Below are positions 8,101-40,359 of a stretch of 64,000 nt of DNA, piece by piece. The translations under genes were made by a program, and so were the position numbers. The notes below the pieces were generated by a model. The model was not told the DNA's origin and made no database searches. It saw only the letters and a list, made by a program, of their open reading frames with translations. Within the stretch, counting starts at the first letter, position 1. Each line of letters opens with the position of its first letter. This DNA is from Rhizodiscina lignyota. Taxonomy: Eukaryota. The stretch lies in the NCBI GenBank assembly GCA_010015805.1, contig ML978131.1, positions 806,001 to 870,000 of the forward strand. The letters run 5' to 3'.

Positions 8101-8612
8101 CCTGTATGCGTTGTTGCGTAGGTGAGGCTCAAACCGTTGCTTGTCTTAATGCTTGGACTTTCAATCTGAGCGCAGCCCCAGTAAGGGACAAGAGCAATCT
8201 TTTGCGGCGCAAACTCGATTAAGACAATCTTCGCAATGAGCCATGAAGCCGATCTTATCAAGCAGCTGCCCTAAATCGTTAGTCGCACGAGTATCGCAAA
8301 GAAAGGTACCTCAAAGCACGCTGCATATTTGGTAGTCGCGAGCAGCACTCTGCATAGCAAATACTTCGCTGCAGTCTCCGGCCAAAGGTATACGTAAGTA
8401 TCAGAAATGGCACGATTTTGCAAACAGCTTGCTTGCCTGAGGCTGCATTCGACATCAATGCAGGGACTTCGCTCGCCGCTCCTCCCTGCGGAATCTACGT
8501 GGGGAGTCATATTGGCCGCCGCTTTGTTTGCCAACACTTCTCATTGTGCAGTTCTGACCAGCCTCAAATGTGCCTTCCTGTCAACAACATCAACGTTCTT
8601 TCCCTTTTCATC

Positions 8613-16684: not shown

Positions 16685-17680
16685 TCAATTGCCTTTCTTC
16701 TCCGCTTCATATCTTTGCCACAGTGCCGCCTTCACAAACTTTCCCTGCATCCTCTCCGGGAAACTCTGCACCAGCGCTAGCTGCACCGCATGCCAGAAGT
16801 ACCCTATCACAGTTCTTCTTCCACACCCGACGCGCTGCACAGCCGCAGCAGCGAAAGTATCGCTCGATGGGTTGCTCAAGCTGACTGTCTCATCGCTGTT
16901 GTGCTGCGCTACAACTGGCCCGCTGGTCACACTGAGCACTTCAATCGGTCGATTGAAGAGCTCTACTTCCCATGCCAACGCTTTAGAGAGCGTGTGCATT
17001 AGCGACTTGGCACCAGAGTACGCGCTAACGAGTGGAATGCCTTGCAAGTCCGCGAAGGAGCCAATGCTCATGATCAGAGAAGGGCGCTGTTCGACTGATG
17101 AGCTGGTTCGTCCAAGCAGTGGTATGAGTGAATTGGTTAGCTGCGCGGGAAATACAGCATTGAGGGTGATAATACGGCCCAACAGCTCTGGCTCCAGCTC
17201 GCCAAACACGGTGTAAGAGAGACCGAACATTGCGGTGCCACCAACATTGTTGACCAGCATTGTAACGCAGAGTCCTTCGTCCTTGATGAACTTCTCGATT
17301 GTGGGAACAGAAGAGGCTGGGTCTTCGGCCGACGCGCAGATGGCGAGGACCTTGCGTCCCGAAAACTTGGCTTGTAACTCTGAGCGAACTGATTCGAGCT
17401 TTTCGGGGTTGCGGCCGTGGATGATGACGTTAGAGCCTTTAGAGAGCAGGACGGCCGCAATTGACTTTCCGATACCTCCTGTCGAGCCTGTGATTAAGGC
17501 ATACGAATCCGGATTAATGTAACGGTGGACACTGGAAGGCCGGAGATACGGCCAGGAGAAGCGCAGGACACGATTCAAGGTCAATACCGTTGATATCGTA
17601 CCAATTGTTGCAAGTATACCTGTGAGTGTGACGGGGGTATTCAGAGCTACAAAGGCTCTTTGCATGTGTGGAGGGATCAT
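16685..17680 (-). CDS. Short-chain dehydrogenase/reductase, 17-beta-HSD / very-long-chain 3-oxoacyl-CoA reductase-like, with an N-terminal membrane anchor
   Basis: ITGSTGGIG Rossmann motif, LVNNVG, catalytic YSGAK, and a hydrophobic N-terminal segment after the likely start MIPPHMQ (17680). Confidence 0.85.
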   Translation of the reverse strand: MIPPHMQRAFVALNTPVTLTGILATIGTISTVLTLNRVLRFSWPYLRPSSVHRYINPDSYALITGSTGGIGKSIAAVLLSKGSNVIIHGRNPEKLESVRSELQAKFSGRKVLAICASAEDPASSVPTIEKFIKDEGLCVTMLVNNVGGTAMFGLSYTVFGELEPELLGRIITLNAVFPAQLTNSLIPLLGRTSSSVEQRPSLIMSIGSFADLQGIPLVSAYSGAKSLMHTLSKALAWEVELFNRPIEVLSVTSGPVVAQHNSDETVSLSNPSSDTFAAAAVQRVGCGRRTVIGYFWHAVQLALVQSFPERMQGKFVKAALWQRYEAEKKGN

Positions 17681-18246
17681 TGTGAAAAGGGTGCCAGGCT
17701 CTGCCCTTTGTGTCTTAAATTTCAAAGAATGGACTTGAGGGAAAAGAATAAATGGGTGGAAGTCAGGCCGATACCGGAAATATAACTTGAGGTTGATGAA
17801 TACGGAGTACGTTGATAGAACCCTGGGTCGGACCCCGACGTTGAGAAGTTGTATGCGCCACCGAAGACAGACCGAAGAGTAAAAGCAGGTAAAAGGAGAA
17901 GAAGAAAAGAACGATGAAGATGGAGATGGAGTTGAGCGTCGTCGTGAAGAATTTCTAAAATCCACCTCAGCACTATCGCACCCTAGCTCCTTCAGATGTC
18001 CGTGAGTTGGGATTGGTCTCCGTGACGAGACGCGGCTAGCTCGAGAACTCAATTCATGATCTCATTTGTGTAACTGTAACTCTGGCGAAGGCGTTTCACA
18101 AATTGCGCCCTTTCTAAAAATCGTGGATGAGGCACAGAGGTCATATGATCGATAACCCAGTCGGTGACTTTTGACCTCGTTCAGGACGGAGAGTGGTGGA
18201 CATCCCACAGCTCTATTCAATCCTTGGCAAGCTTCAACATCACAAA

Positions 18247-22111: not shown

Positions 22112-23926
22112 ATGTCTCCTTCTGTGGCTAAAGGAAACCGACCCGTGCGAATTGCACAAATCGCCGCCTCTACCGTCGACCGTCACGAAATCTTTGGCAT
22201 GCTGGCAAAGACCACTGAAGCAGATGTTTTTTGTGGTGACTTCATTTCCGAGTGGAATATGGCTACTCGTGGCGCAGGAAAGGCCTTGGGACTTGAAGAA
22301 TTCTCCTACGAGCCAGCCTTTGTCGATGCCATCGCACCGGCGCTGGAAGATTTGGAGCGCAATCGAATCAAGGTTGCAGTCAATGCAGGTGTAACTGATA
22401 CTGCCAAACTTGCCAAACTTATCGATGGCATGGTTAAAGAGAGAGGCCTCAATTTGAAAGTTGCGTATGTCGATGGAGATACCGTCACGGACACCGTCAA
22501 GCAACTTATCAAGGGAGGAAAATCCTTCAAGCATCTTATAGATTCCGTCGATCATTTAGGTAAAGACGGCGACGAGATGATTTTTGCCCAATGTTACCTC
22601 GGCATTTGGGGTATCGCACGTGCTTTCCGCGAAGGAGCGGACATTGTCCTCTGCGGCCGCGTGACAGACGCGTCTCCAGCAGTGGGCGCTGCTGCATGGT
22701 GGCACGACTGGAAGGAGGATCAATACGATGAGCTTGCTGCTGCCCTGATAGCGGGTCACTTGATAGAATGCACAGGATACGTGACAGGGGCGAATTTCAC
22801 CGGCTTCAAGCGCTTCCCCGTCAATGTCAAGACAGGATTTCCCATCGCTGAGATTTCAGCCACTGGCGACGTTGTCATCACAAAGGCTAGTTTCTTTACG
22901 GGAGAGGTGTCGCCGGAGACCTGCACCTCGCAGCTCATGTACGAAATCCAAGGGCCGTGGTACTACAACTCCGACGTCACTGCTGAGATAACAGATGCTA
23001 AGCTTGAGAAGATTGGGAAGGACCGTGTACGGCTCAGTGGTATTCGTGGGATGCCGCCTCCGCCGACCACTCGGGTAGGCTTTACGACAATGGGAGGGTA
23101 CCAAGCCGAGATGCATTGGTTCTTGGTGGGCTTAGACGTGAAGGAGAAGGCGGAGATGCTCACAGCTCAGATCAAGGAGCGCCTGAATCCGGACAGTTTC
23201 CAATGCCTCGTATTCCAAACACATGGATCGGTCCCTAAAGATGCCAGGACGCAAGCATCTGCTACGTTGGATTTTAGAGTCTTCGCCCAGGCTCGGACCG
23301 AAGAGTTAATCAGCCACAAGAACTTCTTCCGGCCATGCATTGATGTGCTCAATATCACATACCCAGCCGCAACCTTCCACCTGGATAACAGGCAGAGCTT
23401 CCCAAAGATCTACTACGAGTACTATGTGTCCCTCATAGAGCAGTCAGTAGTAAGGCAACAAGTGCACATCGGGTCCAAAGTCATCGATATTCCGCCTCCA
23501 AGCGTTACGAAACAGTATCCCTCGGAACAGCCATTCACCGACGTGACCAATCCAGTTGATCTCAGCTCGTTCGGCCCAACTACGTTGGCTCCACTGGGAT
23601 ACGTCGTACACGGTCGTTCGGGAGATAAATCGTCAAACGTAAACATCGGGCTCTTCGTCCGGCACGCGGATGAATGGGACTGGCTTCGCAGTCTCCTTTC
23701 CATTGCCAAGATCAAGGAGTTGTTGCGTGACGAATATACCGGCAATAAAGTCGATCGCTGGGAGTTCCCTAATGTGTGGGCAGTACACTTTATTCTACAC
23801 GACCATCTCGATCGTGGCGTGAATTCCAACTCGACATATGACTTTTTGGGCAAGAATGTAGCGGAGTTCGTTCGTTATCAGAAGGTTGAAATCCCGAACA
23901 AGTTCTTGGAGAGGGGAAGAATCTAA
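22112..23926 (+). CDS. AtuA-like / DUF1446 protein (acyclic terpene utilisation A family), intronless, 604 aa
   Basis: Motifs GDFISEWN, VAVNAG, VAYVDGD, GADIVLCGRVTDAS, AGHLIEC, GFPIAEI, QLMYEIQGPWYYNSDV, and C-terminal GRSGDKSSNVNIG and DFLGKNVAE. Confidence 0.9.
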   Translation: MSPSVAKGNRPVRIAQIAASTVDRHEIFGMLAKTTEADVFCGDFISEWNMATRGAGKALGLEEFSYEPAFVDAIAPALEDLERNRIKVAVNAGVTDTAKLAKLIDGMVKERGLNLKVAYVDGDTVTDTVKQLIKGGKSFKHLIDSVDHLGKDGDEMIFAQCYLGIWGIARAFREGADIVLCGRVTDASPAVGAAAWWHDWKEDQYDELAAALIAGHLIECTGYVTGANFTGFKRFPVNVKTGFPIAEISATGDVVITKASFFTGEVSPETCTSQLMYEIQGPWYYNSDVTAEITDAKLEKIGKDRVRLSGIRGMPPPPTTRVGFTTMGGYQAEMHWFLVGLDVKEKAEMLTAQIKERLNPDSFQCLVFQTHGSVPKDARTQASATLDFRVFAQARTEELISHKNFFRPCIDVLNITYPAATFHLDNRQSFPKIYYEYYVSLIEQSVVRQQVHIGSKVIDIPPPSVTKQYPSEQPFTDVTNPVDLSSFGPTTLAPLGYVVHGRSGDKSSNVNIGLFVRHADEWDWLRSLLSIAKIKELLRDEYTGNKVDRWEFPNVWAVHFILHDHLDRGVNSNSTYDFLGKNVAEFVRYQKVEIPNKFLERGRI

Positions 23927-24361
23927 ATTGGGTTACGTTGAAATGTACGTAAATTGTAAAAATAATTGACGGAATTGTGGAGCGGGAGCATAAGGCCTTA
24001 CGGAAGATTGTGATCGAGAACGTGTAATCCATAATGCCGTTCACTGAGTTCTTGCTTCGACCACCTTTTACGGGCCTGCGACTACGATAACTCGAAGCGG
24101 TGTGGGCCCTACCTTACCATAATGGATAGCCGAACAGCCCTTACCATATTAAGGATAAAAATACGTCCAACTGAACCTGTTTGAGTTAGCCTGAAAAATG
24201 TTAATGGAAGCCAAAACCCGACGACCGTCGTTATTAGCCGCTCCTGGGTTCGGGGCACCCCCGTCCTTCGAGCCGGATCTTGGAAACCAGAGGGGCAGTT
24301 TTGAGCGTCCTGGGATCATCTTCATAGTTTTTTTATATCTGCACTCTCTGTGCATCAGGCC

Positions 24362-27316
24362 ATGTCGGTTTCTCCTAGACCAGCCTCGAAACGCAAGCAT
24401 GTCACTACTGCTTGCGTTTCATGTCGCACGAGCAAAGTGAAGGTACGGGGTCATGATCGAAGCCCAGACTCGCCGTCTTTCACTCATCCAGTGGCAAAGT
24501 AACAAGCTGACATTACTTCCAGTGCGATGGCTTAACCCCTTCATGCTCCAACTGCCTCAGCAAGAACAAAGAATGTCGCTACCAAGTTGGAGATGACAGA
24601 CGCAAGTGAGTTGCTTTCGGCATTGAACTGATGTAGCCGGCCGCAGTCGGCTTTGCCGTCCCACTCGCAATATATGAGTGCGCTGACAAGTCCCAGAGTA
24701 TCGCTGCGCATTGCTGTAGAGTTGCTCTCGCGCCGTGTGAGTCAGCTCGCTCAATTTATCGAGGCAAATGGGCTGCAGATCCCTTCCATGCAGGAGGACG
24801 AGGAGGCAGCGCTGGAAAGGATTCTAATCGCGGCCAAAGTCAATCCCAAGGAGTTGACTGCAGGTCAACACGTCTTTCCAAGCTCGACCGATCCTGAAAA
24901 CAATGCCACAGGGCCTCACATTTTGATGGGGCAGAATTCCGTCGTGGACAGCGCTCAAGGCGGGGTGGTGGCTGATTTTGATTTCGCCGAGGGCCAGCGT
25001 GACCTGGAACCGAATGTTGAAAGTAGTGCCCAAGCGGTGCTAGGCTCAACGCAGAATGCCGCCAGAGTCGTGAGCTCGTCTGGATGGAGCTGGAACTCAA
25101 TCGAAGCGCAGGAGCCGATGTTGGAGTCAAATTACACGTCTCACCCTGCGCCTGCAGTCCAGGACCAGTCGCCGAACGCTTCCGCCTCTCATGGCTCCTT
25201 CAGTGATGCTTTAATCGAGAAGCGTACACCAGAAGGAGGGGATACCAGCGACAGGGAAAGTGTGGAAGAACTTGTCGACCAGCTCTCTGACAGAATGGGT
25301 TCCATGCAGATTGGCGCTGACGGACAAATCCGCTACTATGGACCTACATCGAACTTCAGTTTGATGGACATGCCTTCTACAGACCCTATGCATGTTCATC
25401 GCTCAATCCGCAATGATGGTCAAGAATACTTGGACCGCCTTGAAGTAGGAGCAGAGGTACCCGCTGACCTAGAGAACCATCTGGTCAATCTTTATTTTGC
25501 ATGGCAGGATGCGTCCTTTCACGTCGTGGATCGGGACATGTACGAAAAGGGGAAGCGCAAGTGGCACGTGGACATGCAGGATACTCCATACTATTCTGAG
25601 GCCCTTAGAAATGCCATGTAAGTTGCTGTCAGACTTGCAGGAAAGTCGTCTTAACTGAATCATTAGATGCTCGCTCGGGGCTGCCTTTGAGGCGAAACAT
25701 CACCCAAGTTTCGTCACGTTTCCCAAATCGTTGGCCGATTTCTTCGCCGACAGGGCGAAAGCGCTCCTCGAGATCGAGCTGGATGCCCCATGCGTAGCAA
25801 CAACACAAGCCATGGTGGTTACTAGCTGCCACGACATGGGTTGCACTCGAGATGCTCGGGGCTGGTTGTACAGTGGTATGTTCCAAAGCTATTGCTTCTA
25901 GTACAATATGCTCAAGGATGATAGGAATGGCAATCCGACTTGCATTTGACTTGGCCCTTCACAAGGATATGACTGAATACATAGAGAAGGGTATCATTAC
26001 CCAAGCCGAAGCTGATGTCCGCCGAACGGTTTTCTGGGGGGCATATGTTGTCGATCAGTACGCATCTCCCCAAATGTTCTTCACGGCTTGTCTGACCGAA
26101 ATCAAGAGTCTGGGGATTCCACCTGGGGCGACAATTCCGAATCCCCATGGAAGATATCACTTGTGCGAAACCGGGCGGTAGCTTGAATAGCACCATCAGC
26201 AATCAATGGGTGTCTTATACATCGCCTACGTCTACCCAGACATGCACGCCAGTGTTCGGTTATGTACAGGAAGTAAGCCGACAGCGTGCCCTGCTCTGCC
26301 AGATCATGGCTCCATTAGGATATAATCTGTATGCAACAAGACTTGAACAAGCTGAGCAACCGCTGACACTTTTGCTTTGCAGATATGGCAAATCCGGAAT
26401 TCCACCTGCCATACTGCAGGACTTAAACGCGAAGACAGTTCAGGAACTGTTTAAATGGAAGGACGAGCTTCCAGCAGAGCTACAGATAGCTCTGCAGGTA
26501 GATGTCCAAGAACATACTACGCCGTACCTACCGCATGTCCTATTATTGCAGTAAGTACGACGCTCAAAACCTGAAATCCCACTCACCCGTCGCAGCATGC
26601 ACTTCTATCAAAGCCTAATTCATGCCCATCGCCCGTGGATGTCAAAACATTTCATCCAGCCGCAACCGCCTCAGGGCCCAGGCTCGGAACATGCTCGGCA
26701 GATGTGTGTTGACGCAGCGATCGCGATAGCGAAACTTCTCCAAGTGTACGAGAACAGATACACTTTTCGATTCATGAACATTCAAGGGCCTGCGATTACT
26801 TGCTCGGCAGCATTGTTACTCATCTTTGCTGACATCTCTCACATTGGGCGACCACAAGGTCTCAGTGTAGCACCGTACCTGAGTGTCTGCTTCCGGGCAC
26901 TCGACGAGTTCGGACAGTCTTGGGAAAGTGCAAAACGGGCAAAAGACTTTCTGACGAGGTTGCAACGCCAATGGGAGCTGAAAGCTCGCGCGAAGCGTTA
27001 CGAGCGTCGAAAAACGGACCTTTATAAGACTACTTCCAACAGCACGAGGAAACGACCTTTCAACGAGGCCGACTTTGGTCCAGGTCAAAACGAATTCCAA
27101 GCAACTCAGCCACTGGAAGAGCAGCAATCGGTAGAAGGAATGCAACAGCAGCAAGGGCACCTCCAAAACAGCAATCGTGCTGTCGGGTTTGACCTTGATA
27201 TGGACTTCGACTGGATGTTGGAGGCGGATGTACAAGCTGTGTCGGGAAATTGGGCCCCTGTTCCTTCTTCCAGGACAAATCCTCCCGATTTGATGGGATT
27301 GCTGGGCGAACTCTGA
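24362..27316 (+). CDS. Zn(II)2Cys6 binuclear-cluster transcription factor with a fungal-specific middle homology domain
   Basis: Spliced N-terminus MSVSPRPASKRKHVTTACVSCRTSKVK|CDGLTPSCSNCLSKNKECRY carries all six Cys. Later exons contain YYGPTSNF, LVNLYFAWQ, GMAIRLAFDLALH, RRTVFWGAYVVD and IHAHRPW. Multi-exon; internal boundaries approximate. Confidence 0.93.
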
Positions 27317-27536
27317 GCACCTATCCAACCTTGCGAATATTAATATGGAGATCCGCCCATGGAATCAGTGATCGCAATTTTCGTCCCCCAAGGTCAGCGA
27401 CAACTACTCCCTTCCGGCCGTTGGTGCTGGGAAACAAAATGCAGATGACATCTGGCGCCTCTCTGATGACGTATATTTCAGACTTCAAATTTCTCTAATA
27501 TTTTCGTTGACAAAGAGGCAGCGCCGCACGACATCT

Positions 27537-28681
27537 CTACATCAGCCTTCCCGCGTGAATCCCACCTGTGATCAAGAGGTCATCTGATGTATGATATGCG
27601 CTCGCATCAGAGAGCAGATATACAACAGGAACTTTTAGATCGGTGCGGTCTCCCATCCGTCGCATGGGCGGTTCGTTGTTCATTATATCTCCAAGCCACG
27701 GCATACGATTGCAGAGGTCAAGCGTCATATCCGTCATCATGTAGCTGAGGATGCGTGTGAGCGGACGTTGGCTTGTTAAAATGTTGGGTTCCAACGTTGC
27801 ACTTACCCAGGAGAGACGCTATTCACGCGGATGCCAGTACCTGCTAGCTCTACGCCGAGTGCCTTGGCCAACGAAACAACAGCACCTTTGCTAGAGCAAT
27901 AGTCGCTCGTCGTCTGGCCCTTGCTCGCCACATACGCAGCAATGGAACCGATGAATACCATAGATCCGCCCCGCTTGTTGAACGATGTCGGTTCCTGCTT
28001 CAACATTTGCGCTCCTGCCAGTTGCGCCGAGTAATACGTTCCAAGCGTGTTGACGGCGAAGCAGCGGGCTACTGATTTAGGGTCACGCTTGAAGAAGGGC
28101 TCGTCGGGGCAGATGCCGGCGGCCGTCACCCTGGAACTCCATTCAGTTGTTGCGTTATATCATATGGAAGGGACGATTTTGAGAGATTTACAAGCCATCA
28201 ATGCGCCCGAAATCTAATACAATGCTGTCGAAGGTCGCTTTGAGCACATCATAATCTGTCACATCGCTCCTACCGTTCTCGCGCATCTCGTCAGTACCTC
28301 TGTGCAGTTTGACGATGTTTCTGTAGACCCAACTGACTTGTAAAGTTTACACTTGATGTCGAAATCTTTTTGAAGCTTTTCAAAGTGCTCGTGTGGTTTG
28401 TCTAGCGCGTCAACAATAGCAACGTTCCCGCCCACCTCTGCGATAGCAAAAGCAAAGGCTAGGCCCAGGCCTCGTGCGCCGCCTGTGATAACTATAGTGC
28501 GGCCTTGGAGGGAAATCAGGTCATGTACTGAGCGGCGCAAATATGCGTTAATGTCGTTTGATGGCTGAGAGTCGCTGGTTGTGTGGGCGTCATTTGTCGG
28601 TATGCTGTTGCCGTTGGTGGCTGCTGGAGTACCATCAATTGGTAGAGCAGGGAGATTTGTCACTGGAGTTGCGGTCGACAT
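27537..28681 (-). CDS. Short-chain dehydrogenase/reductase of the sorbose-reductase / arabinitol-mannitol dehydrogenase type
   Basis: Motifs ITGGARGLG, DFGRIDGLVTAAGI, IGSIA, catalytic YCSSK, RVNSVSPGY and LLITGG. Four exons joined by GT-AG introns. Confidence 0.9.
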
Positions 28682-28945
28682 GGCTTATGTGCTCGTGACA
28701 ATGATGATTTTAATGATAGTTTTTCGAGTATCCAGGTTGACACAGCGAGGGGGGATAGGATAGGATACGTGTATTAAGGGAATTGGAATGGACACAGCTG
28801 GGTGTGAATTGTAGAAATAGCAATAATAATGAAAAACATAGATGGCTTTTATGGAAAAGCGCCACGCAGGTACCTTAAGGTATGCACAATGAACAGGGGT
28901 ATTCGTGATCAGCCAGGGGTGCCTCAAAGAGGTTAGACGAGGTGG

Positions 28946-28962
28946 TCGGACCAGAATTCCGA
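28946..28962. promoter_or_regulatory. Putative Zn2Cys6 site TCGGA-ccagaat-TCCGA (CGG-N9-CCG) upstream of the SDR
   Basis: Inverted repeat about 265-281 bp upstream of the ATG; matching copies lie upstream of neighbouring genes. Confidence 0.6.
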
Positions 28963-29495
28963 GGCTTAAATGTGGAGATGCATCATGCCCATTACCCATC
29001 ATCATACCCATTCGGAATCCAGGATGCAAAGTCGTGATAGTCAGCCCTCTTGGAACCCTCGACCTCGGCTTCCGCCTTGATGCCAATAGTTACCCAGCTT
29101 CTTAACGTCCCAAGGATGAAGAGGCAAAATACCGTGGCGTAGCACCGTTGAACGCGCGCGCGGCTGGCATTCCCGCCATGGCGCGACTACGTTTGGATAA
29201 CCCTCCAACGCTCGCGCTCTCTGCCCCAACTCGATTCAAGACCCTACGGATCCCATTGACATTCTGGTCTCGTATGACACTTTGAGCGGAGGTTCACAAA
29301 GCCCGCGCCACTCGCACATAAAAATGCGTTGCGTCTTTGACAGACCATAAATGTAATGAGTTGATTGAGAAAGGAATCTCTCTGTAGAAAGTGGTGGTTT
29401 TATATACACATAGAAAGGGCGCTACTGCTAGCTAACCCCCTCTGACAGTCTTGGCATAGCCGACTTAAGCTACCTTTATAAGCAGTCCTCTATGC

Positions 29496-31450
29496 TCAGA
29501 CTTCATTCGTCGACGTCATATTTGGCCAGATGGTGGCCGCCATTTCGTTCTCTATACGAGCGCGATATGCTTGCTCCGCTTCGCCAGTACGGTCGTGGAA
29601 GACGTGATCCATTTGCTCCAATGTCCGGCCATTTGTCTCGGGAACCACAAACCAGACCCAGATCAAAGCGAGAAGGCAGAACACACAGAAGAATACATAA
29701 GTGCCGAATCCGGTGTTTTGGACGAGCGGGGGCGTAATCAGACCAATGATGAAGTTGTTAAACCAGTTCGACATGGTCGCGAATGCCATGCCCTTCGCGC
29801 GAAGGGAGGCCGGGAAAATCTCAGCGGGCATTGCCCACGGTATCGGGCCCCATGTCGCGCCATACGTGAGCATGAAGAAGAGCAGAAAAGCGACAGAGGT
29901 CCAGGCCGCAGCCTGGTGAGTCGGCCAGCTGTTCTGGAACTTACCCACGAGAACGGCAATGATGAAATGGGCTGTGACCATGCATGCCGCACCGCCGAGC
30001 AGCAGCGGTCGTCTGCCGAACCTGTCCATACCCCATAATGACCAGAAGCATGCTACCATCTGAACAATGTTAAGGACTCCGGACATGTTCAACTGCATCT
30101 CGTAGTCCAGGCCCATTTGTGCAAAAAGGGTTGGTGAGTAGTAGATTAAAGCATTCACGCCGCCAAATTCTACAGTTTCACAAATTAGTGACGGGATACT
30201 TGTAGGATGTAACCTTAAATGGTGGCGAAATCTCGACATACGTTGGAAAAACATGAGCCCAATGCCAACATGGGTTCTCTTCCAAGCACCCTTACGAAAA
30301 CAGTCCGTGTAGGCGACGACGTGGCGCATGATACGGGCCTTGTAGGTATCACTTTGTAATTTCGGGTGCAATTCCTTCTCCAGCGCGCTGCGGTATGCCA
30401 CTTCAGACCGAATTTCGAACCACTCACGCAGGACGCGCTCGTCGGTGGATGGGACGTTGCGAATCTTGCATAGAACTTCTAAAGCTTCGTCATCGCGGCC
30501 TTTAGATGCCAACCAGCGAGGAGAATAAGGGAGAAAAGGAACGCCTATCCCCAGTATCAAAGCTGGTACAATCTAATATCGTATTAGCTTCGGCTTGTTT
30601 CAAAGATGGAGCTGAGAGCTACCTGGATGAGAAAGGGGAGGCGCCATGACCATTCACTGGGAATAAATCGTGTGCCGTAAGTAATATAGAAAGCGATGAC
30701 AATTGCCGTAACAATAGAAAGCTCCTGGAGTACCAGCAGGGTACCGCGGATCTCGGGAGGAGCGATCTCGGAAATATACAGAGGAGCCACCATTGCCAGC
30801 ATGCCAACGCCTATTCCGCCTATGAAGCGAGCAGCGACGAGCATTCCATAATCTTGGGAGGCTGTTTGCAGCGACGAGCCCACAAGAAAAATGATGACAG
30901 CAACCATAATGGACCACTTGCGTGAAATCTTGTCGGCGAGCCAGCCTTGGTTCATTGCTCCCAGAAACGCGCCCAGCTCGATCATGGCTGTGAGTAAGCC
31001 TTTCTTGAAGCCCGAGCCGGCAGCACCAGCAGCAATTTCTGGAAACTGCTTCAGGAACTGTTCCATAACGAGCGTCACGGAAACGACTCCTTGGTCGTAG
31101 CCGAAGAGTGCACCGCCCATTGTCGAGAATGCCGCACAAATTGTGACATATCTATTAGTGAAGAGGCCTTTGAAGCCTGTCTCCGATATTAGCCAATTCG
31201 CCACATCAGCCAGCAGACAAAGCATAGCTAAGGAGAAATGGATTGCACACGCACCTGCCTTGCCATACGTCTCTCGTTCTTCCCATACAGGGCGTTCGGA
31301 ATGGACGGCTTTGGTCTCAGGCTCCTCGAACGCTTCCAGCTGCACGGCGCTAGGGGACTCGATTTTGAGTGCCATGTCGAAGGCGGAACTTGTACCTGGG
31401 GTGGCTGTCTCTACGTTACGTTCGTCGGTGTTGGACAATTCCAAGGGCAT
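29496..31450 (-). CDS. MFS sugar porter (Sugar_tr family)
   Basis: Motifs GGALFGYDQG, ADKISRK, PLYISEIAPPEIRG, WRLPF, PYSPRWL, FFQ(E)FGGVNALIYY, DRFGRRPLLL, WGPIPWAMPAEIFP and VPETNGRTLE. Three introns. Confidence 0.95.
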
Positions 31451-31654
31451 AAAAAACAGAATCGTGCGGATCGCGTTTGGAGCGGCGCAGAAAGTAAGCC
31501 AATCGATAAATTGTGTCCACCAGCTGTACCGCGGTTCTCGTGGAGGCTTATATCTACTGCAGCACACGTGGATTGTGCCAAATCTGGGGTAGTCCCCATA
31601 ATCTGCGGGGTACTCCTAAGCTGAGATGCTGAAGGACGGGGAATGGTTGGCCGA

Positions 31655-31671
31655 TCGGAATTACAGTCCGA
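31655..31671. promoter_or_regulatory. Putative Zn2Cys6 site TCGGA-attacag-TCCGA (CGG-N9-CCG) upstream of the sugar porter
   Basis: Reverse complement TCGGACtgtAATTCCGA matches the SDR-promoter copy TCGGACcagAATTCCGA at 14 of 17 positions; about 205-221 bp upstream of the ATG. Confidence 0.6.
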
Positions 31672-31965
31672 GGGATTAATGATGGCCATGGGCCTCCTTA
31701 GTATCATGGGTATCCTGGACATTTCCGGAAATGAACAGCGTCCGTACAGTCCTCTTCTCCTCTTCCAAGTCCCCGCGTATTCCGCTGGGATAATGAGGTC
31801 GGATTCACTGACAGATATGGGGATTGCCTGGTTCCGCCGATAAGGTCAGAAAACGTAAACAATATTGGCACGAGAACTTTAGCCATGACAGGCTACCACG
31901 CAGGTATTAGAAAACATTGAGCATGACATTCAGCTCCTTGGCTCTCGAATTACAGACATGGTGCA

Positions 31966-33223
31966 TCACGCCACGTCCGGAAAGCCAAAGTCGACACCAA
32001 ATGCCGGATATACATAACGATGTATTTCGTTCCGTTGCTGTACACTATGGACAAAGGCATCAAGATCCTCGAGATCGTCCTTTTCGAGCTTTACCAAATT
32101 CATATTGTCACGAATACGTGAGGGTGACACGGATTTTCCAAGGACCGAACGGCCATGTGCGACTACAAGTCAAACTATCGTCAGCCAAGCTGTCAGATCA
32201 AGCTCGTGGCGAACATGAGAAATGATGGGAGTCGGCATAATTGAGACGTACCATGCCAGCTTAAGAGTATTGTGCTCGCCCCTGTCCCTCTTCTCTTCGC
32301 AATCGTCTTGACAACGTCAAGCTCGATAAGCGGACTTCCGCTGCTCCCCAGTGGACTGTATGCCGTTACATGGATGCCTTTGGCTGTGCAAAAGTCCACT
32401 ATGTCTTGCTGAAGGAGAAGCAGATGGTTCTCAATCTGGTTCACAGCTGGTACGACGCTTACCTTCGGCAGTAGTTCGTTCAGATATTTGACACTGTAAT
32501 TGGCGACGCCGATGGCTTTGACTTTTCCGGTCGTAAGTAGCTTTTCCATGTCCTTGTACGTGTCGACGTGGCTTCGCTCCAAGGTCAAATCCCGAGACCC
32601 ATCAGGAAGTTTGGGAAACTTTTCGTCATTGCCTGGAGAAGAAGTCTAATTAGCTGCAGAGCATCTATGAGTATTTGCAAGTTGCGGCGACAGACACTGC
32701 GCATATGGTTCCACGCCCAACAGCGTTGCAGAATAGTCATGCTATCACTCTGTCCTGAGGACCTGAGCAGGGCAGGAAAGAGCCAAGACATAGTAGGATG
32801 AGCATTGGCTTACCATTCGGATTCATTGCGACTGGCCAATGCATAAGATAAAGGTCAATGTAGTCTAGGCCAAGCGCCTCCAGGCTCATATCAAGATTCA
32901 TCTCTACCCGTGTGTGATAGGTGCACCAAAGCTTTGTCGTGACAAATAGCTCTTCTCGTTTCACCTTCCCGCTCGCAAGAGCGTCGTTGAGGCCTAGACC
33001 AACTTCTGCTTCGTTACCATAGCAGTATGCAGCATCTACATGCCTGTAACCGATATCTAGTGCGTAGGCGACCGCTGCTCGCACTTCACCGGGTTTAGAT
33101 TGCCAAGTACCTTGAAAGGCGTTAGTATTGAGCGGCATATGAGACATTCCGAGACGAACCGAAGCCAAGCGCTGGGATTTGAACTCCATTATTGAGCCTG
33201 AAGTGGCGCGGAACATCGGACAT
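31966..33223 (-). CDS. Aldo-keto reductase (GCY1 / GaaD / LarA-like glycerol-aldose reductase)
   Basis: Motifs FRLNNGVQIPALGFGTWQS, GYRHVDAAYCYGNE, LFVTTKLW, YIDLYLMHWP, FPKLPDGSRD, KAIGVANYS, VNQIENH, AYSPLG and KSVSPSRI; ends PAFGVDFGFPDVA* (TGA 31966-31968). Four exons. Confidence 0.93.
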
Positions 33224-33399
33224 AGTGGCAATGAAAGGATAAGAGACGCAAGTGGACGGATGGTTCCTTCCTGTGATAAAGGTGTGATGAGCGTTGTCTC
33301 CCGGGTGTATACGAGAGTATGAAATATCCAGCAGTCCAAGAGGCCTGTATCTAAGTCCATCTCTCGGATTTAAATCCCAGGTCAGCCGACGCTGATGAA

Positions 33400-33426
33400 T
33401 CGGAATTTGCACTTCGAACGGAAATT
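33400..33426. promoter_or_regulatory. Degenerate CGGAA half-site pair (TCGGAATTTGCACTTCGA...CGGAAATT) upstream of the AKR
   Basis: Contains the TCGGAATT half of the cluster motif about 180 bp upstream of the ATG; spacing and second half are imperfect. Confidence 0.35.
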
Positions 33427-33755
33427 CAAAGCATCTGATGGACTGCGAGCCTGCAAGCAGCTTCTGATTGGCTCCGTGAGTGAAACGTTCCATAATACCT
33501 GGCCATCCAATTACATGTTACTGAGGGAGTTTCGAGCCATCTGCACCTCCAGGAAGAGTGTCAAGATGAGGAGAGTGAGAATTATGGCACGGATGAAAAT
33601 GTCTCGTAAGCTAAAGAGGAACTAGAAGAATAAGATGTGATATATCGAGACTTATTGTCGACTCAACGAGAAGATACCATATGCCATCGCGTCGAGAACG
33701 AGCTGTGCAGAGAAATGCTAAAACCATCATTAAACAAGATATTTCAATATTGAGG

Positions 33756-35523
33756 CTAGATAATGCTTTTCATCTTCTCCACCAGCGAAGGCATTAGACG
33801 GAACCAAGAACGTGGCGCAAGAGAAGCGGCAGCCGCCATCAACAGCAATAGCTTCATTACGGTTGACATGGTCCTCAGCCATCTCTTGAAGGCGAAAAGA
33901 GGCCACAGAGAGCTGCCACCACTCATGTTGAAAGCCGCCCAATCGGGGAAGAAGGTTGCCATCCAGAAGGATCGGGCAAGCCCAGGCCAAGAAGCTGCAT
34001 TGCGACCAAAGTCGCCCATGTACCAGTTTGAGCAATCGCCTGCGAACACGGTGTTCTGCAACCCGCTATGGATCGCGTTGGTTGTACGGTCCTCCGCCGA
34101 TTGTTTCACCTCAATAACGGACGCCCGATGATCAAGCAGCGGTTTGAAGAGTGACTTGATGGCATAATCAACTTGTGTTTCGCACGCAAACAGAGCCGAA
34201 TTATTCGCCGGGAATGTGTTGGGGCCAAAAAGAATGGCGAGATTGGGATAGTTGTGCACGTAGGTCCCGAGATAAGCCTGTGCTCCACGACACTCCTTCC
34301 ACTGATCGTGTAGGGCCATGCCGTTAGCACCGACAATGTGCATCGGTGTTAGGAATTGTGAGACTTGGAAGCCAGTCGCAAGGACAATGATGTCGAAGTC
34401 GTCGCGGATACCGGAAGTGCTCACGATTCCCGTCTCGGTAATCTCCTTGATCCCTTCTGGTAAGAGCTCAACATTCTTTCTGTTCAAAGACTCAAGGTAG
34501 CCAGGGTCAAAAATTCGCCGCTTGCAGCCCAGAGGAAATTTGGGAATTAGCACCTCCCAGTACTTCTTTGGGGTCATTGAACAGATGTATTTGGTCGACT
34601 GCGCTTCCATTTTCTTCCGAGCTTTCACTCCGCTTGGCGTGGGGAAATAGGTGGCTGTTTCATCGTCGGCTTCTAAGAAGATGCGAAGACGAAGTGACCG
34701 CTGCCAAAGAGGAACCCACTTGAAAAGGAACTTATCCAAGGCGTTGTAATAGTGATTAGGGCGCTCGTGGTACCATTGGCCACTGCGAGCATACTGCTTT
34801 ACGAAGGCGACATCTGGCGCAATTGCCGGGACAACTTGAGCAGCGCTGCAGCCATTGCCAATGACCGCCACGCGCTTGCCCTTGTAGCTCACCGAATGGT
34901 TCCAACGTGCTGTGTGGAACATGTCTCCTTTGAAATTTTCCATCCCCGGGAACTTAACGTCTCGCGGGAACGAGATGGCTCCGACGGCAGACACAAACAC
35001 AGAAGCAAACCTCGAATACTCGATTTCAGTTTGAATATCTTTCAGCCTGACTTCCCATTTCGACTTGTCGGCGTGCCACGCAGCACCCACGCATTCGACG
35101 GAGCAGTGAACATGCTTTCGGATGTCAAACTTGTCAACGGTGTCGTCCATATCTGTCCGATGTCACTGTGGCGCACTCATACTGTCTTGGGGTACTGCTT
35201 ACACTGTAGGATTTCGGGTTGCTCGCATAGTTCTCTAGACCAGTTCGGGTTTAGGTTGAAGCTGAAGGAATAGAGTACGGACTTGAGATCACAGCCACTG
35301 GAGTGATATTCTCAGCAGATGCTCGTGCTTTTGGCAATGTCGGGATCCATTCTCACCAGCCCGGATAAGTGTTCGTCCTCCATGTACCCCCGACTCCGTC
35401 GAGCTTCTCGTAAATGGTAAAGTCTTCGAAGCCTAGGCCATGCTTAAGACGATAAGCCATTGCGATTCCGGCTGGGCCTGCGCCAATGATGATGGCATTG
35501 AGCTCCTTCGCGTAAGGCGACAT
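33756..35523 (-). CDS. FAD/NADPH-dependent Baeyer-Villiger-type monooxygenase (class B flavoprotein)
   Basis: Motifs IIGAGPAG, GGTWRTNTYPGCGCD, fingerprint FKGDMFHTARW, second Rossmann VIGNGCSA, GCKR and LATGF; hydrophobic C-terminal tail. Three exons in frame. Confidence 0.92.
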
Positions 35524-35766
35524 GTTTCCTGCTGTGTGCATCGTGCGTTGAGTCTACAATAATCGAGTTCACCCACGAAGAGGATCGAGGCACTGGACTT
35601 TGACGAGCGAACATATGTCTTATTCGAAATAGCAAAGACAGAATCTGAGGCGGACTGCTCTTCCCTCGGTCGCGGCTCTGGAAAGCTCTTCCAGTGGCAT
35701 AGCTCCCGAGCGACACAGGCCGAGATCGCCACGATGGAATGACATGTTTCTGACACTTGGTGGGGA

Positions 35767-35783
35767 TCGCAAGTGAATTCCGA
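35767..35783. promoter_or_regulatory. Putative Zn2Cys6 site TCGCA-agtgaat-TCCGA (1 mismatch) between the monooxygenase and the dehydrogenase pseudogene
   Basis: Same 17-bp geometry; shares GAATTCCGAGG with the SDR copy; about 244-260 bp upstream of the monooxygenase ATG. Confidence 0.5.
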
Positions 35784-36039
35784 GGAAATGGAATTGGTGG
35801 TTGGCTGGGCTTTACTCCGTATGTGTGCACACGTTCGTGCTATCACGTCGTCTCGGAAATCTGCCCCGACACGTGACATGTTAGACAAACTCGGTTAGAT
35901 ACCGTACTTTCCGGCTATACTGAAACAGCGCTAAAGGAAGACGCTAACCATCTCAGGTAGGAAAGTGGATATCTTCCATATGGTTACTTACAGAAGAGTA
36001 GGGCTATGGATGTCTGTGCGCATCTATCGTATTGGTCAC

Positions 36040-36722
36040 ATCAAAAGCCGTGCACACTTCGCGTAGTTCCAGTACAGCCGGAAAGTATGGTACATAGGGC
36101 ATCAGTGCCCTAGTCGCTCAAGCCGACGACTGCAGAGACATTATCATCGCAGATATAGACAAGGGCCGGCTCCAATTTGCTTTTGGAAACGGATTCGCAC
36201 AGGCCGTGCATGAGGTTGAGTCACGGAGGGGAGCTACGGTAGAGGAGAAAAAGGAGATAGCGCGAGAGACTGCTCGAAAGATCGGCGCAGTGAAGTAGCC
36301 GGACGGTGAGAGTGTCGGGGAGATCCAAAGAACGTCGAGACCAGCCTGCAATCGTCTATATATGTAAGTCATACTTTTGCGTTTGTCTATATCAGATTTT
36401 GACATTCGACCAGGCAACGCGATCGGGAGGGAGCGTTATCCTTGTTGATATGGGAACACCTGATCATACACTGTCAACGTGGCGATATACAAATGCTTAT
36501 CCCAGGACAATTGAGATTGCAACAGCGGCAGCCACAGGTTCCTCGCTTAGTTCCACGATTCTTCCAAACGTTCGGAAATTGATCACACATCGTCACAAGG
36601 GGCTCGCCTCCGTTGAAGAGGCGTTTAACAATACCTCAAAGACAAGATATGCAAATTAGAACCTTGTCATGAAGGTCGTAGTTGAAATGGATGGCGTAGG
36701 ACGGCCGCAGTATCATCTGTGA
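36040..36722 (+). pseudogene. Decayed zinc-dependent polyol (sorbitol / xylitol / L-arabinitol-type) dehydrogenase, C-terminal half only
   Basis: Remnant peptides CRDIIIADIDKGRLQFA, (E)TSLQSSIY|ATRSGGSVILVDMGTP, WRYTNAYPRTIEI and LPNVRKLITHRHKGL...LVMKVVVE. In-frame TAG at 36296-36298 and 36657-36659, a frameshift near 36335, internal deletions, and a retained GTAAGT...CAG intron at about 36364-36413. Confidence 0.8.
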
Positions 36723-37003: not shown

Positions 37004-37420
37004 TCACTCCCCCTGTATATGCAACAGGGTGCAACTGCCCGTGATCAAGACCTGCGGCGGCCCAACTGTGAATGTCTCCCAGTCATCGCTGTCGACGTGC
37101 GTATTCGTGATTTTCATCTGAAGTCCATCCAGACCCCAGAAGGTGCAGTCTACGTCCATGCCATTGTTGAAAATCTCGCCAGTGCTCATCGATAGTTGTG
37201 CGTTCTGCAGCACATCGCCGCTCTCAAGCACAATTGTTGCGAAGCCCCACGTTACGCCGTCGAGGGGCCAGTTGAGGGCCACAGACTGAATTGGACCCTG
37301 ATCAATAGCACCGTGGAAGGTGACTGGGATGGAGAGTGTTTGGCGGGGCTGGAGTGGGGCGGCGGAGGTGAGGCTCAAGAGAGCGACTGCAATTGTGGCG
37401 CGTGCGGCGAGGCGCATCAT
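37004..37420 (-). CDS. Small secreted protein (about 138 aa, two Cys)
   Basis: Signal peptide MMRLAARATIAVALLSLTSA, propeptide APLQPRQ, and the pattern VTFHGA...CTFWGLDG...VGPPQVLITGSC seen in fungal small secreted proteins. Confidence 0.75.
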   Translation of the reverse strand: MMRLAARATIAVALLSLTSAAPLQPRQTLSIPVTFHGAIDQGPIQSVALNWPLDGVTWGFATIVLESGDVLQNAQLSMSTGEIFNNGMDVDCTFWGLDGLQMKITNTHVDSDDWETFTVGPPQVLITGSCTLLHIQGE

Positions 37421-39303
37421 GATTGATGAAGTGGAGGAGAAGTGTACGGGGATGCAAGCAGGATTAGGAAGAAAGCGATGCATATGAATTTAAACGAGCA
37501 GAGCAGTATCAATTGAGGATTAATTGAATTGCCCCATCAGGTATATTTGGTATCCCCCAAAGAAGTAGCCGATGAGGATGACGAGATGGTGAGAGCGTGC
37601 ACGCTTCAGAGCTTAATATACATATCGAGCGCATAAGATGCCCAGAGAACTTTTTGAAAAGTATAGTGTGAATCGAGCATCGTGGCTGCACGGGTTGTTC
37701 GTGCATCTGGAACCTGCCGAGGAGTGTCATTGCCGTTGTTGGAAATGATGGAAGCTAGCCTCTTCCAACACAGGGAGCAATGAGAGGTTAACCAGATACT
37801 TCCAGAATAGGTAGGCTGTGAGCCAAATGATTGGCTCGACGACGGAGAGAACAGGAAAGAAACGGAAAGGAGGGTATTCGACAACGGCACAGATTTGGCT
37901 TACCGTTCACATTGAATCACGCGCCGCGGCAAGAGCGGCGACGAGAAACGAGAAGTGAGTTGAGGTTGAAAATAGGAGTAATACGAAAGCGAGCAAGCGT
38001 CGTGAGGTATAAGAATAGTCCTCCACGCAGTCTGGGATTGGTCGCTTGTAGGTTTGGAGATCCCACGTCATCCTTCTCCAGATCCGGCGGCGAGGCGACC
38101 AGACTTCTTGGCCAAATGCTTCAACCAATTGAAGTATTAGTATCAGTCTATTCGTTGCTTGACGACGAGGCTGAGCATAGGTGTATCTGATTTTTGTGTT
38201 ACAGGTTTCAGAGCTTCGATTCGAATGCAGGGGAGAAAATGTCCGGTATGGCCATTGGACGTGGAGTTGGCACGATCTCTGGATTTCGCCCGCATATTAG
38301 TCCTTCAGTAATGTAGGTTTTTGCAAATTCTCTAGTCAGTGCAGAGCCTCCGGTGTCGGTTATCGCCTCAAATTTGTCTCATCTTGACATGAGTGACAAA
38401 GGGACATGCGCCACAAGCCCAAGAAGCGTTCACGTGGGCAGATCCGGGTACAATATGGCCGAGAGTCTGGAGACTGTAGTTGAGCCGCCGCAAAGGAGTT
38501 TTTAGAAGAGTCCGAGAACAATTTTTGATCGTTTACGAAGATCAGGTGCAAAAGATGAGTTTGACGTTCTGCAGAAATTTCCGCTATGTCAAGGGAACAA
38601 CACGATCGGAAACATTGTTCTACCCGCTGAATAATTTTGAGATTAAAACAATAGTTCTCTTGGCAAGTTCACATCGTAGTTATTTTTGCTGTCTTCGTCT
38701 AGTATCGTATGTTCTGTGACCTGTCTTGAGACAGGCGCGCGCGCCACCAGACAGGGAGGTCGAGGGTGACAAAGAACTTGAGCATTGGCCGCAATGAACT
38801 GTTCAAGTGCATGGTCGCTTGTGTCAAGATAAACTATGTTCGCTAAAACCATGTGATCTAGATAAGCACTGGCTAATAAGACATATCGCGCCGAGCTATA
38901 AGCGACGTTCTCGTCGAAGCCGAAGAGGTTGAGCTTCCGTGATTATTTGCAGCGCTCAACTTGCGAGCTTATTCGGACTAAGACCTGAAAAATTCTCTCA
39001 TATACAAGCGCCATTGTTCCAAGTCGGAGGGTCAATGCTTAGATAAAGCAATTGTGGTAATCATGGTAGCACCCAGAATAAAGAGACGCTCTTAGTGCAT
39101 CCAAGCTTGCCCAGCCACGACTGAATGGCATCTTTGTTGACCATACAAAGGGGGTAGTTTGCAACTCCGGGCACTGACAATGGCACCTCGCTCGCACAAC
39201 AATGACTGCGAGAATAAGTCAAATAAATGTGAATCGTTCGCTCTGCTGTCCTGTGAACGCAGAACCGTATACCAATCGACCGCTCTTTATATTGTTCGAC
39301 GAA

Positions 39304-40359
39304 ATGGATCCTGCAAATCCTAAGTCTGGCGCGGGCGCCGGATTCTCAGACTCAATGCGTGATTCAGTCGTGTTTGCTGACAGTCAGTTTGATCTATCAT
39401 TGTCCGTGGGAAGTTCTCGAGCGAATGCGTGTACCGATATCGAGCGAGCGCAGGGTGCAACAGCCCCTGGAGTGTTTGAGGAGACAGCGAACGGATACAT
39501 GATCTATGCCGAGGGTAAGCATGGAGATGAAGAACTTACGGAACGATTCCAGTTTCCTTTAGATCGTAACAGGGCCGAAGAGATTCTCATGTTAGCATAC
39601 ACTATCCGGAGCAGCATTCTCCTTAGCCAGAACTACATCGAAAAGGCGGCATTCGATAAGGATTCGTTCAAATCTACCAACATGCTACTCGGCCATAAGG
39701 GAGACGGAATACCGAGAGAAGTTGTGCGACAACAAGCGAAAGACGCACTGGCTATCCGTTCGGTATCCCTTTTCGAGACCATATTTTATGATTCCGCGGA
39801 GGACATCTCGGATGATGAGTCCATCAGGAGCGTACACTCGGACTGGGAGGTACTTGGGCAGTGGCTTCAAAAGAAATCGAAACACGATCCTAAATTCGAA
39901 CCTGGCACGGACACCTCCTTCATGCACACGGACCGAGCGAGAGCCATTCGGAACCAAATCGTATATCAGTACGGAATGGCATCCCTGACTGCAATATATG
40001 ATGCAGAAGCCCACTGGGAGCTGATGATGCAGGTATATCCTCGCTGGTTGAAGTATCTCAGTTATGCCATTGCCAACACTGAGAGATACTTACCAGCTTT
40101 GACAGATTCTGGCCTCGAGAAGTTCCCGTCGTCGATATCAGGGGGGTCGCGTAGATTTGAAAACATTGCGCCTGAGCAGTCTCCGAGGACAGAGCGTAGC
40201 GCGACCTCTGCTGCTCCTAAAGAACCATCAGAAAATGCTGGACGCAAATCTCTGACAGGGCCTGGACCACAGTCACCGATACCAATGCCTCATGTAGCGA
40301 ACGTTAAGCATACTTTCGAGCATATGCTAGCCAAGGTTCGGAGCGCACGTCAGGGATAA
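39304..40359 (+). CDS. Hypothetical protein (about 350 aa)
   Basis: Long stop-free ORF with globular, helical-looking composition; start could be 39202 or 39304. No family recognised. Confidence 0.55.
   Translation: MDPANPKSGAGAGFSDSMRDSVVFADSQFDLSLSVGSSRANACTDIERAQGATAPGVFEETANGYMIYAEGKHGDEELTERFQFPLDRNRAEEILMLAYTIRSSILLSQNYIEKAAFDKDSFKSTNMLLGHKGDGIPREVVRQQAKDALAIRSVSLFETIFYDSAEDISDDESIRSVHSDWEVLGQWLQKKSKHDPKFEPGTDTSFMHTDRARAIRNQIVYQYGMASLTAIYDAEAHWELMMQVYPRWLKYLSYAIANTERYLPALTDSGLEKFPSSISGGSRRFENIAPEQSPRTERSATSAAPKEPSENAGRKSLTGPGPQSPIPMPHVANVKHTFEHMLAKVRSARQG

Follow-up and report, generated by a model that had tools for sequence, protein, structure and literature searches.

Fungal catabolic clusters that pair a Zn2Cys6 activator with a permease of the sugar-porter family include the quinate (qut/qa), L-rhamnose and D-galacturonate groups. 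In bacteria, type I Baeyer-Villiger monooxygenases (BVMOs) serve the degradation of cyclohexanol and cyclohexanone, acetone, 2-butanone and monoterpene ketones, and the AtuA family is named after the Pseudomonas Atu (acyclic terpene utilisation) cluster. Here, we analyse a stretch of 64,000 nucleotides from Rhizodiscina lignyota (GenBank assembly GCA_010015805.1, contig ML978131.1, positions 806,001 to 870,000), which we call the window and whose numbering we use throughout. Between 22.1 and 36.7 kb it holds genes for an AtuA-like protein, a Zn2Cys6 transcription factor, a short-chain dehydrogenase/reductase (SDR), a sugar porter of the major facilitator superfamily (MFS), an aldo-keto reductase (AKR) and a type I BVMO, followed by the remnant of a polyol dehydrogenase of the medium-chain dehydrogenase/reductase (MDR) family. 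On balance, we think that this locus represents a metabolic cluster widely conserved among ascomycetes, which would run a factor-controlled route of uptake, alcohol-ketone interconversion and Baeyer-Villiger oxidation. The core of the cluster would be the BVMO and a mannitol-dehydrogenase-type SDR, ancestrally with a divergent polyol-type MDR, and in the window this core would be joined by the AKR, the sugar-porter-family transporter and the factor.

The locus resembles the qut/qa-type clusters in its linked Zn2Cys6 factor, Sugar_tr permease and NAD(P) dehydrogenases, in its CGG-type palindromes and in a linkage that extends across fungal classes. It differs from them in having a BVMO, which to our knowledge those clusters lack, and in that Pfam scans of the window found no dehydratase, aldolase or kinase typical of sugar catabolic routes. 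Its three oxidoreductase classes, AKR, MDR and SDR, are those of the fungal oxidoreductive polyol and pentose enzymes, but here the genes are linked to one another and to a BVMO, and the MDR is a pseudogene. The bacterial BVMO routes share with the locus the logic of a dehydrogenase plus a BVMO, and their enzymes, cyclohexanone monooxygenase (CHMO), phenylacetone monooxygenase (PAMO) and steroid monooxygenase, are homologues of the window BVMO. Those operons, as far as we know, include an esterase or lactonase, none of which was seen in the window, whereas the present locus is eukaryotic and pairs its polyol-type dehydrogenases with a sugar porter and a Zn2Cys6 regulator. The likeness to the Pseudomonas Atu cluster lies in full-length PF07287 together with PF23544; the acyl-CoA carboxylase, acyl-CoA dehydrogenase and enoyl-CoA hydratase of that cluster were not found by Pfam in the 64-kb window. 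Fungal clusters with a dedicated Zn2Cys6 activator and a permease are thus already known, and the version built around a BVMO with polyol-type dehydrogenases appears undescribed. The initial annotation of this DNA had not recognised the combination as a described cluster, and our literature search, in which supplements were not included, likewise returned no description of a fungal cluster of a BVMO with polyol-type dehydrogenases.

Linkage in other fungi speaks for a cluster, at least as far as its core is concerned. We searched annotated fungal genomes with a BVMO exon, which gave 3980 matches at E ≤1e-40 (the best 120 listed), and with an SDR exon, which gave 61 matches, and compared the locus tags of the SDR matches with those of the listed BVMO matches. 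Among the matches listed, BVMO orthologues 66 to 84% identical to the window's occur in Sordariomycetes, Dothideomycetes, Eurotiomycetes and Leotiomycetes; in the rows compared, the SDR orthologues are about 65 to 84% identical over the whole length. Ten assemblies have positional tags on both genes, and in eight of them, from three ascomycete classes, the two orthologues lie one to three genes apart: Kalmusia (N0V90_004382/004384), Fusarium nematophilum (ACJ41O_000887/000889), Cylindrodendrum hubeiense (G7Z17_g8734/g8736), Tolypocladium paradoxum (TPAR_02971/02973), Diatrype stigma (SLS62_010420/010418), Rhinocladiella mackenziei (Z518_03920/03919), Exophiala bonariae (LTR84_004239/004242) and Cosmosporella (Fc.00g084920/084890). 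Both the BVMO and the SDR of the window are 80 to 84% identical to their Kalmusia orthologues. The data suggest that ten further species carry the two genes on one contig, not necessarily as neighbours. Over-long gene models tie in other members: P0283 from Talaromyces atroroseus contains an SDR 73% and an AKR 58% identical (over 300 aa) to those of the window, and P0269 from Cylindrodendrum contains an SDR (75%) and a Zn2Cys6 factor (37 to 67%). Since the linkage is conserved elsewhere, the grouping goes beyond chance.

A profile scan with a 22-sequence BVMO alignment retrieved 80 metagenome loci, all of which were searched by tblastn with the window proteins. Pfam was run on 218 of the 346 open reading frames (ORFs) of at least 110 aa from 12 independent loci, with duplicates removed (L008 equals L009; L011, L012 and L026 equal L010; L015 and L016 equal L017). 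At least one related neighbour accompanies the BVMO relative in 11 of the 12. An SDR of the same subfamily is present in seven loci (eight by Pfam), a Sugar_tr transporter and a related Zn2Cys6 factor in five each, an MDR, an AKR and a transketolase in two each, and an AtuA gene in one. L006 contains an SDR (58 to 87% identical to the window's), a transketolase paralogue, an MDR and the BVMO; in L003, an MDR divergent from the BVMO is followed by a PRISE gene and an aminotransferase. The divergent MDR-BVMO pair of L003 and L006 has the same arrangement as in the window. A Sugar_tr gene, BVMO, SDR and Zn2Cys6 factor make up L009 and L030, and L017 has a transketolase, SDR, Sugar_tr, BVMO and Zn2Cys6 factor. 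L010 combines Sugar_tr, BVMO, SDR and a P450, with a 3-beta-hydroxysteroid dehydrogenase (3-beta-HSD)/epimerase also present, and L029 an old yellow enzyme, two Sugar_tr genes, BVMO, SDR, aldehyde dehydrogenase and Zn2Cys6 factor. The BVMO is followed by a related factor in L013, flanked by SDR and AtuA genes on one side and another SDR on the other in L020, and accompanied by an AKR in L018 and by an SDR and an AKR in L033. The factors beside BVMO relatives (L009, L013, L017, L029 and L030) are 26 to 46% identical to the window factor. As a control, the other SDR of the window (16688-18061) matched none of the 80 loci by tblastn at E 1e-3.

We then placed the BVMOs in a quick maximum-likelihood tree, with SH-aLRT as its sole measure of support. 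A 20-row fungal clade (support 98) unites the window BVMO, its sister from Kalmusia (support 99), all SDR-linked named orthologues and the BVMOs of L003, L006 and L013. The Sugar_tr-BVMO-SDR-factor loci fall into its sister clade of 17 rows (support 95). Because the tree places linked loci in both clades, the BVMO-SDR association exists on both sides of the split.

Some neighbours in the metagenome loci deserve separate mention. A divergent transketolase paralogue, for which comparison with yeast TKL1 gives about 258 bits over 386 aa, lies in the BVMO/SDR neighbourhood of L006 (4883-7334, plus strand) and L017 (1539-4011, plus strand); the window has no transketolase. Enone-reductase-type genes occur near BVMO homologues in L003 (PRISE, 5076-6380) and L029 (old yellow enzyme, 2532-3023), which hints at unsaturated ketones as substrates in some versions of the cluster.

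The genome has the style of a filamentous ascomycete, with short GT-AG introns and a G+C content of about 50%. Gene borders were obtained by splice modelling of exon ORFs, and Pfam was run on 78 of the 151 stop-to-stop ORFs of at least 60 aa between 20 and 39.5 kb and on all 127 ORFs of at least 100 aa in the rest of the window. Six complete models resulted, each with one terminal stop and no internal stops in the translation; the borders of SDR intron 1 are ambiguous. Table 1 lists these genes together with the remnant and the candidate regulatory sites discussed below.

Table 1. Genes and candidate regulatory sites of the locus (positions in the 64-kb window)
Feature	Position	Strand	Details
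AtuA-like protein (DUF1446) with ferredoxin-like C-terminal domain	22112-23926	+	604 aa, 1 exon
Zn2Cys6 factor, candidate cluster regulator	24362-27316	+	863 aa, 7 exons
Classical SDR, NADP-mannitol dehydrogenase/sorbose reductase type	27537-28681	-	321 aa, 4 exons
MFS sugar porter	29496-31375	-	559 aa, 4 exons
AKR	31966-33223	-	312 aa, 4 exons
Type I BVMO (predicted)	33756-35541	-	558 aa, 3 exons
MDR polyol dehydrogenase remnant, pseudogene, divergent from BVMO	36101-36683	+	located by tblastn with the L006 MDR
Bare CGGAATT half-site	23970-23976	+	386-392 bp upstream of factor start codon
Perfect palindrome TCGGAATTCTGGTCCGA	28946-28962		265-281 bp upstream of SDR start codon
Perfect palindrome TCGGAATTACAGTCCGA	31655-31671		280-296 bp upstream of porter start codon
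TCGGAATT half-site with degenerate partner half	33401-33408	+	178-185 bp upstream of AKR start codon
TCGGAATTCACTTGCGA, one mismatch	35767-35783		226-242 bp upstream of BVMO start codon, divergent BVMO/MDR promoter
Second BVMO/MDR promoter site, two mismatches	35853-35869

Four of the six upstream regions of the locus share the 8-mer TCGGAATT, which forms part of an inverted repeat, CGG-N9-CCG, written in full as TCGGAATT-N4-TCCGA. Counted at up to two mismatches, the window has nine copies of the 17-mer where 1.87 ± 1.47 would be expected, and none of 100 shuffles reaches nine, a test that is biased because the pattern was derived from these same sites. An independent test gave a better result: of 30 fungal loci left after removal of duplicates, five (L004, L017, L027, L029 and L034) carry TCGGAATT in the 800 bp upstream of the estimated start of the BVMO, against 0.73 expected from the remainder of the same loci (Poisson P ~9e-4). 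In L017, 15 consecutive bases of the window porter site TCGGAATTACAGTCCGA are found 195 bp upstream of the BVMO homologue, and the MDR/BVMO promoter of L006 has four CGGAAT-type half-sites. Zn2Cys6 dimers bind paired CGG triplets, and we infer that the window factor may bind the CGG-N9-CCG candidate site. The initial annotation had called the cluster self-regulated; the single half-site upstream of the factor gene is a weak hint of such autoregulation. Two more copies of TCGGAATT lie outside the cluster, at 41694 and 45714, and the sequence at 45705-45721 fits the 17-mer at two mismatches.

Type I BVMOs are recognised by two GxGxxG/A motifs and by the fingerprints FxGxxxHxxxW[P/D] and [A/G]GxWxxxx[F/Y]P[G/M]xxxD. 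Measured against these definitions, the window model has both dinucleotide-binding motifs (GAGPAG and GNGCSA), its FKGDMFHTARWN fits the first fingerprint save for the last residue, N, and its GGTWRTNTYPGCGCD fits the second in full. At the end of the first fingerprint, the orthologues carry D or N (pattern MFHTARW[DN]). Pfam finds FMO-like and NAD_binding_8 matches, and the large exon has 41 solved relatives at E ≤1e-5, the best of which are cyclohexanone (CHMO-type, 4.5e-40), steroid and phenylacetone monooxygenases, with E values from 1e-40 to 1e-30; OTEMO is a further one. By its motifs and its homology to solved BVMOs, the protein is thus a predicted type I BVMO. A public model of the same gene, P0121, has 535 aa and is 99% identical over 93% of the exon; the difference from the 558-aa, three-exon model presented here probably lies at the C-terminus or a splice site. 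An assignment of the best solved matches to aliphatic-ketone BVMOs was rejected, as an excerpt of PMC10696468 names one of them, 6a37, as Acinetobacter cyclohexanone monooxygenase.

The SDR has adh_short matches on three exons and carries both the cofactor motif TGxxxGxG (as TGGARGLG) and the catalytic YxxxK (as YCSSK). The nearest solved relative of its orthologue P0241 (84% identical) is the NADP-mannitol dehydrogenase 1h5q, at E 4e-35. The AKR matches PF00248 on two exons. The aldo-keto reductase fold carries an Asp-Tyr-Lys-His tetrad, and the contexts DAAYCY, TTKLW and MHWP of this tetrad are present in the model; for the AKR half of the merged Talaromyces model, the nearest solved structures are aldehyde and aldose reductases. 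Two exon ORFs of the porter together cover both halves of PF00083 (profile positions 3-182 at E 3e-41 and 266-452 at E 7.6e-63), and in a protein atlas the porter falls into generic Sugar_tr clusters only. The zinc cluster of the factor, read from the sequence as CX2CX6CX6CX2CX6C, fits the class pattern CX2CX6CX5-12CX2CX6-8C; its ACVSCRTSKVKCDGLTPSCSNCLSKNKEC spans intron 1. The factor also matches Fungal_trans PF04082 (E 1.1e-6, 28.4 bits against a cut-off of 23).

The polyol dehydrogenase survives as two pieces on the plus strand, 36101-36325 and 36414-36683, which are 47% identical to the intact MDR of L006 by tblastn. They cover L006 residues 198-272 and the C-terminal 103 residues, with 13 residues deleted and the frame broken by two stop codons. 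The catalytic domain of the L006 MDR, formed by its N-terminal ~197 residues, has no match at the locus by tblastn. The nearest solved relatives of the intact L006 protein are xylitol dehydrogenase 7y9p (2.5e-46), L-arabinitol 4-dehydrogenase 3m6i and sorbitol dehydrogenases. The dead polyol dehydrogenase of the initial annotation is therefore real: the remnant is truncated and interrupted, and through L006 it is kin to polyol dehydrogenases.

How would such a cluster work? The sequence data lead us to propose co-regulation, a class of substrate and an order of reactions, read in the catabolic direction. The factor would bind CGG-N9-CCG in the promoters of the SDR, porter, AKR and BVMO genes and activate them jointly. 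The porter would import a hydroxylated, sugar- or polyol-like compound, and the NAD(P)-dependent SDR and AKR, formerly with the MDR, would convert a secondary alcohol to a ketone and back. Oxygen insertion beside the carbonyl by the BVMO would then yield an ester or lactone, which would be cleaved further. A more specific version, which we regard as improbable, is a non-phosphorylative oxidative C-C cleavage of a ketose or alpha-hydroxy-ketone by the SDR-BVMO route. Here the SDR (in the ancestral cluster also the MDR) would oxidise an imported polyol to the ketone, and the BVMO product would be an acyl-hemiacetal ester that spontaneously splits, yielding a carboxylic acid and an aldehyde. That aldehyde would be reduced by the AKR, and the linked transketolase of some fungi would take the two-carbon fragment. 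This version would account for the lack of a linked esterase, because the acyl-hemiacetal would fall apart unaided. We know of no Baeyer-Villiger breakage of sugar skeletons in fungal primary metabolism.

Several observations weigh against a conserved cluster for uptake and oxidation of a sugar- or polyol-like compound. One of the 12 metagenome loci, L023, has no related neighbour beside its BVMO relative. In Cladophialophora immunda the SDR and BVMO genes are unlinked (CLAIMM_12405 and 03188), and in Fusarium decemcellulare linkage was not seen, the contigs of 2.8 and 6.7 kb being uninformative. The window porter is only 22 to 27% identical to the porters beside BVMO relatives, and the window AKR only 27 to 29% identical to the AKRs of L018 and L033. 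At such identities, the two are not orthologous to their counterparts in these loci and would be either independent recruits or non-members. The regulatory motif was found post hoc; of 1000 Markov simulations, 66 yielded some 8-mer common to at least four of six regions, as did 145 of 1000 draws of non-overlapping segments of real sequence. L003 lacks any CGGAAT site. For the product of the BVMO, no esterase or lactonase gene was matched when the window was scanned with Pfam. The accessory genes of the metagenome loci (old yellow enzyme, PRISE, P450 and 3-beta-HSD) suit lipophilic enones as well as they suit sugars. Finally, the ancestral MDR is dead in the window, and the route is therefore possibly impaired in this organism.

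The AtuA-like gene adds to these points. No TCGGAATT-type site lies upstream of it, and AtuA homologues of about 50% identity are not beside the BVMO in Pestalotiopsis fici (PFICI_07351 and PFICI_10612), nor is the homologue in Fusarium nematophilum (ACJ41O_005550 and ACJ41O_000889). The protein matches the full PF07287 profile at E 6e-149 and PF23544 at E 2.5e-14, is identical to P0001 and has no relative among solved structures. A search at E ≤1e-50 gave 1972 matches; in the best 120 listed, close relatives are few (77 to 84% identity, unnamed records and one Extremus antarcticus protein), and identity then drops to about 52%. No Extremus protein is among the BVMO or SDR matches listed. The AtuA-like gene is probably a neighbour and not a cluster member: its membership is doubtful because it lacks the promoter element, the species of its close orthologues are absent among the listed BVMO and SDR matches, and an AtuA neighbour accompanies a BVMO relative in 1 of the 12 metagenome loci (L020). 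The functional cluster proposed initially thus stands in part. The BVMO is linked with the SDR, MDR, AKR and factor elsewhere, and promoters of the locus share the candidate CGG-N9-CCG element; the place of the AtuA-like gene is doubtful, and orthology with the metagenome loci does not extend to the porter and AKR. As further observations on this family, the common fungal DUF1446 proteins at about 52% include, among the matches listed, two from the probable source species (P0009 and P0100). In L020, the AtuA-family gene (6683-8828, plus strand) is 41 to 45% identical to the window's and lies immediately upstream of that locus's BVMO homologue (53%), the two being flanked by an SDR on each side. 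P0002 (AtuA, 84%) and P0297 (a 321-aa SDR homologue, 61%, from Aureobasidium) may lie on the same contig. Excerpts of PMC4682846 and PMC5371717 mention DUF1446 only as a protein of unknown function.

We considered that the cluster may be real and yet act in the detoxification or modification of lipophilic carbonyls, such as terpenoid, steroid-like or alicyclic ketones and enones of plant or microbial origin, and not in feeding on a sugar- or polyol-like compound. A non-sugar would then be the cargo of the 'sugar porter', and the dehydrogenases would be general carbonyl reductases. The PRISE gene of L003, the old yellow enzyme and aldehyde dehydrogenase of L029 and the P450 and 3-beta-HSD/epimerase of L010 are consistent with this, as are the nearest solved BVMOs, which act on cyclohexanone, steroids and phenylacetone, and the presence in the window and in L020 of an AtuA-family gene, named for acyclic terpene utilisation. 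Each enone-type gene, however, is found in one locus only, whereas the recurrent partners are of the polyol type: the SDR resembles NADP-mannitol dehydrogenase, and the MDR resembles xylitol, L-arabinitol and sorbitol dehydrogenases. Sugar-porter-family transporters in five of the 12 loci and transketolase paralogues in two also argue against it, and we see the lipophilic alternative as a possibility to be taken seriously, if a minority one. It is rather unlikely that the locus is a decaying relic, in which a BVMO-MDR-SDR unit has lost its MDR, has been split by an unrelated AKR and porter and no longer supports a working pathway. The MDR is indeed truncated with stops, the SDR and BVMO are two tags apart in five of the eight linked assemblies while two other genes separate them here, and the porters and AKRs of related metagenome loci are not orthologues of the window's. 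Yet the other six frames are all intact, and the BVMO and SDR have kept their 80 to 84% identity to Kalmusia. Moreover, the inserted porter and AKR share the upstream element with the SDR and BVMO, and an orthologous SDR-AKR pair exists in Talaromyces atroroseus.

Chance adjacency of seven loci from common accessory families, with no shared function, is disfavoured, and we give it very little credence. SDR, MFS, AKR and Zn2Cys6 proteins are among the largest ascomycete families, and sharing of a promoter 8-mer is not rare, as the simulations above indicate. Against this stand the linkage of orthologues in the comparable assemblies and in the metagenome loci, and the merged models that join the SDR with the AKR and with the factor. 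The metagenome matches are specific to one SDR subfamily, the control SDR having none, and copies of the motif precede BVMO relatives in independent loci as well. A conserved, factor-controlled cluster around the BVMO and SDR is the explanation we prefer.

Within the ORFs scanned between 20 and 39.5 kb, no additional Pfam family was matched between the six genes. Genes of the housekeeping type flank the locus: to its left DUF829, COG8/Dor1, RPSA and a class I Trp/Tyr-tRNA synthetase, to its right GST, MGMT, cyclophilin and RasGAP. A polyketide synthase (PKS), nonribosomal peptide synthetase (NRPS) or terpene cyclase was sought with Pfam in the window and not found. The gene identities given initially were correct, and Pfam and the splice models confirm six intact genes; the SDR, porter, AKR and BVMO genes are indeed co-oriented on the minus strand, and no housekeeping gene interrupts the locus, other families being found by Pfam only in the flanks. 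Just past the border of the cluster, a 161-aa ORF without a Pfam match (37004-37489, minus strand) has a hydrophobic, signal-peptide-like N-terminus and may encode a small secreted protein. Further on lies a 393-aa ORF, again without a Pfam match (39178-40356, plus strand).

The BVMO and SDR are conserved and have kept their adjacency, and therefore point to a widespread, as yet nameless fungal function. Should this function be catabolic, fungal carbon metabolism would gain a Baeyer-Villiger step, with testable parts in the form of a regulator, a candidate binding site, a transporter and three oxidoreductases. The enzymes of a BVMO cluster are also of biocatalytic interest. If the cluster instead detoxifies ketones from plants or microbes, the finding would matter for substrate range and ecology. 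Either way, a list of 'hypothetical' genes becomes a defined experiment.

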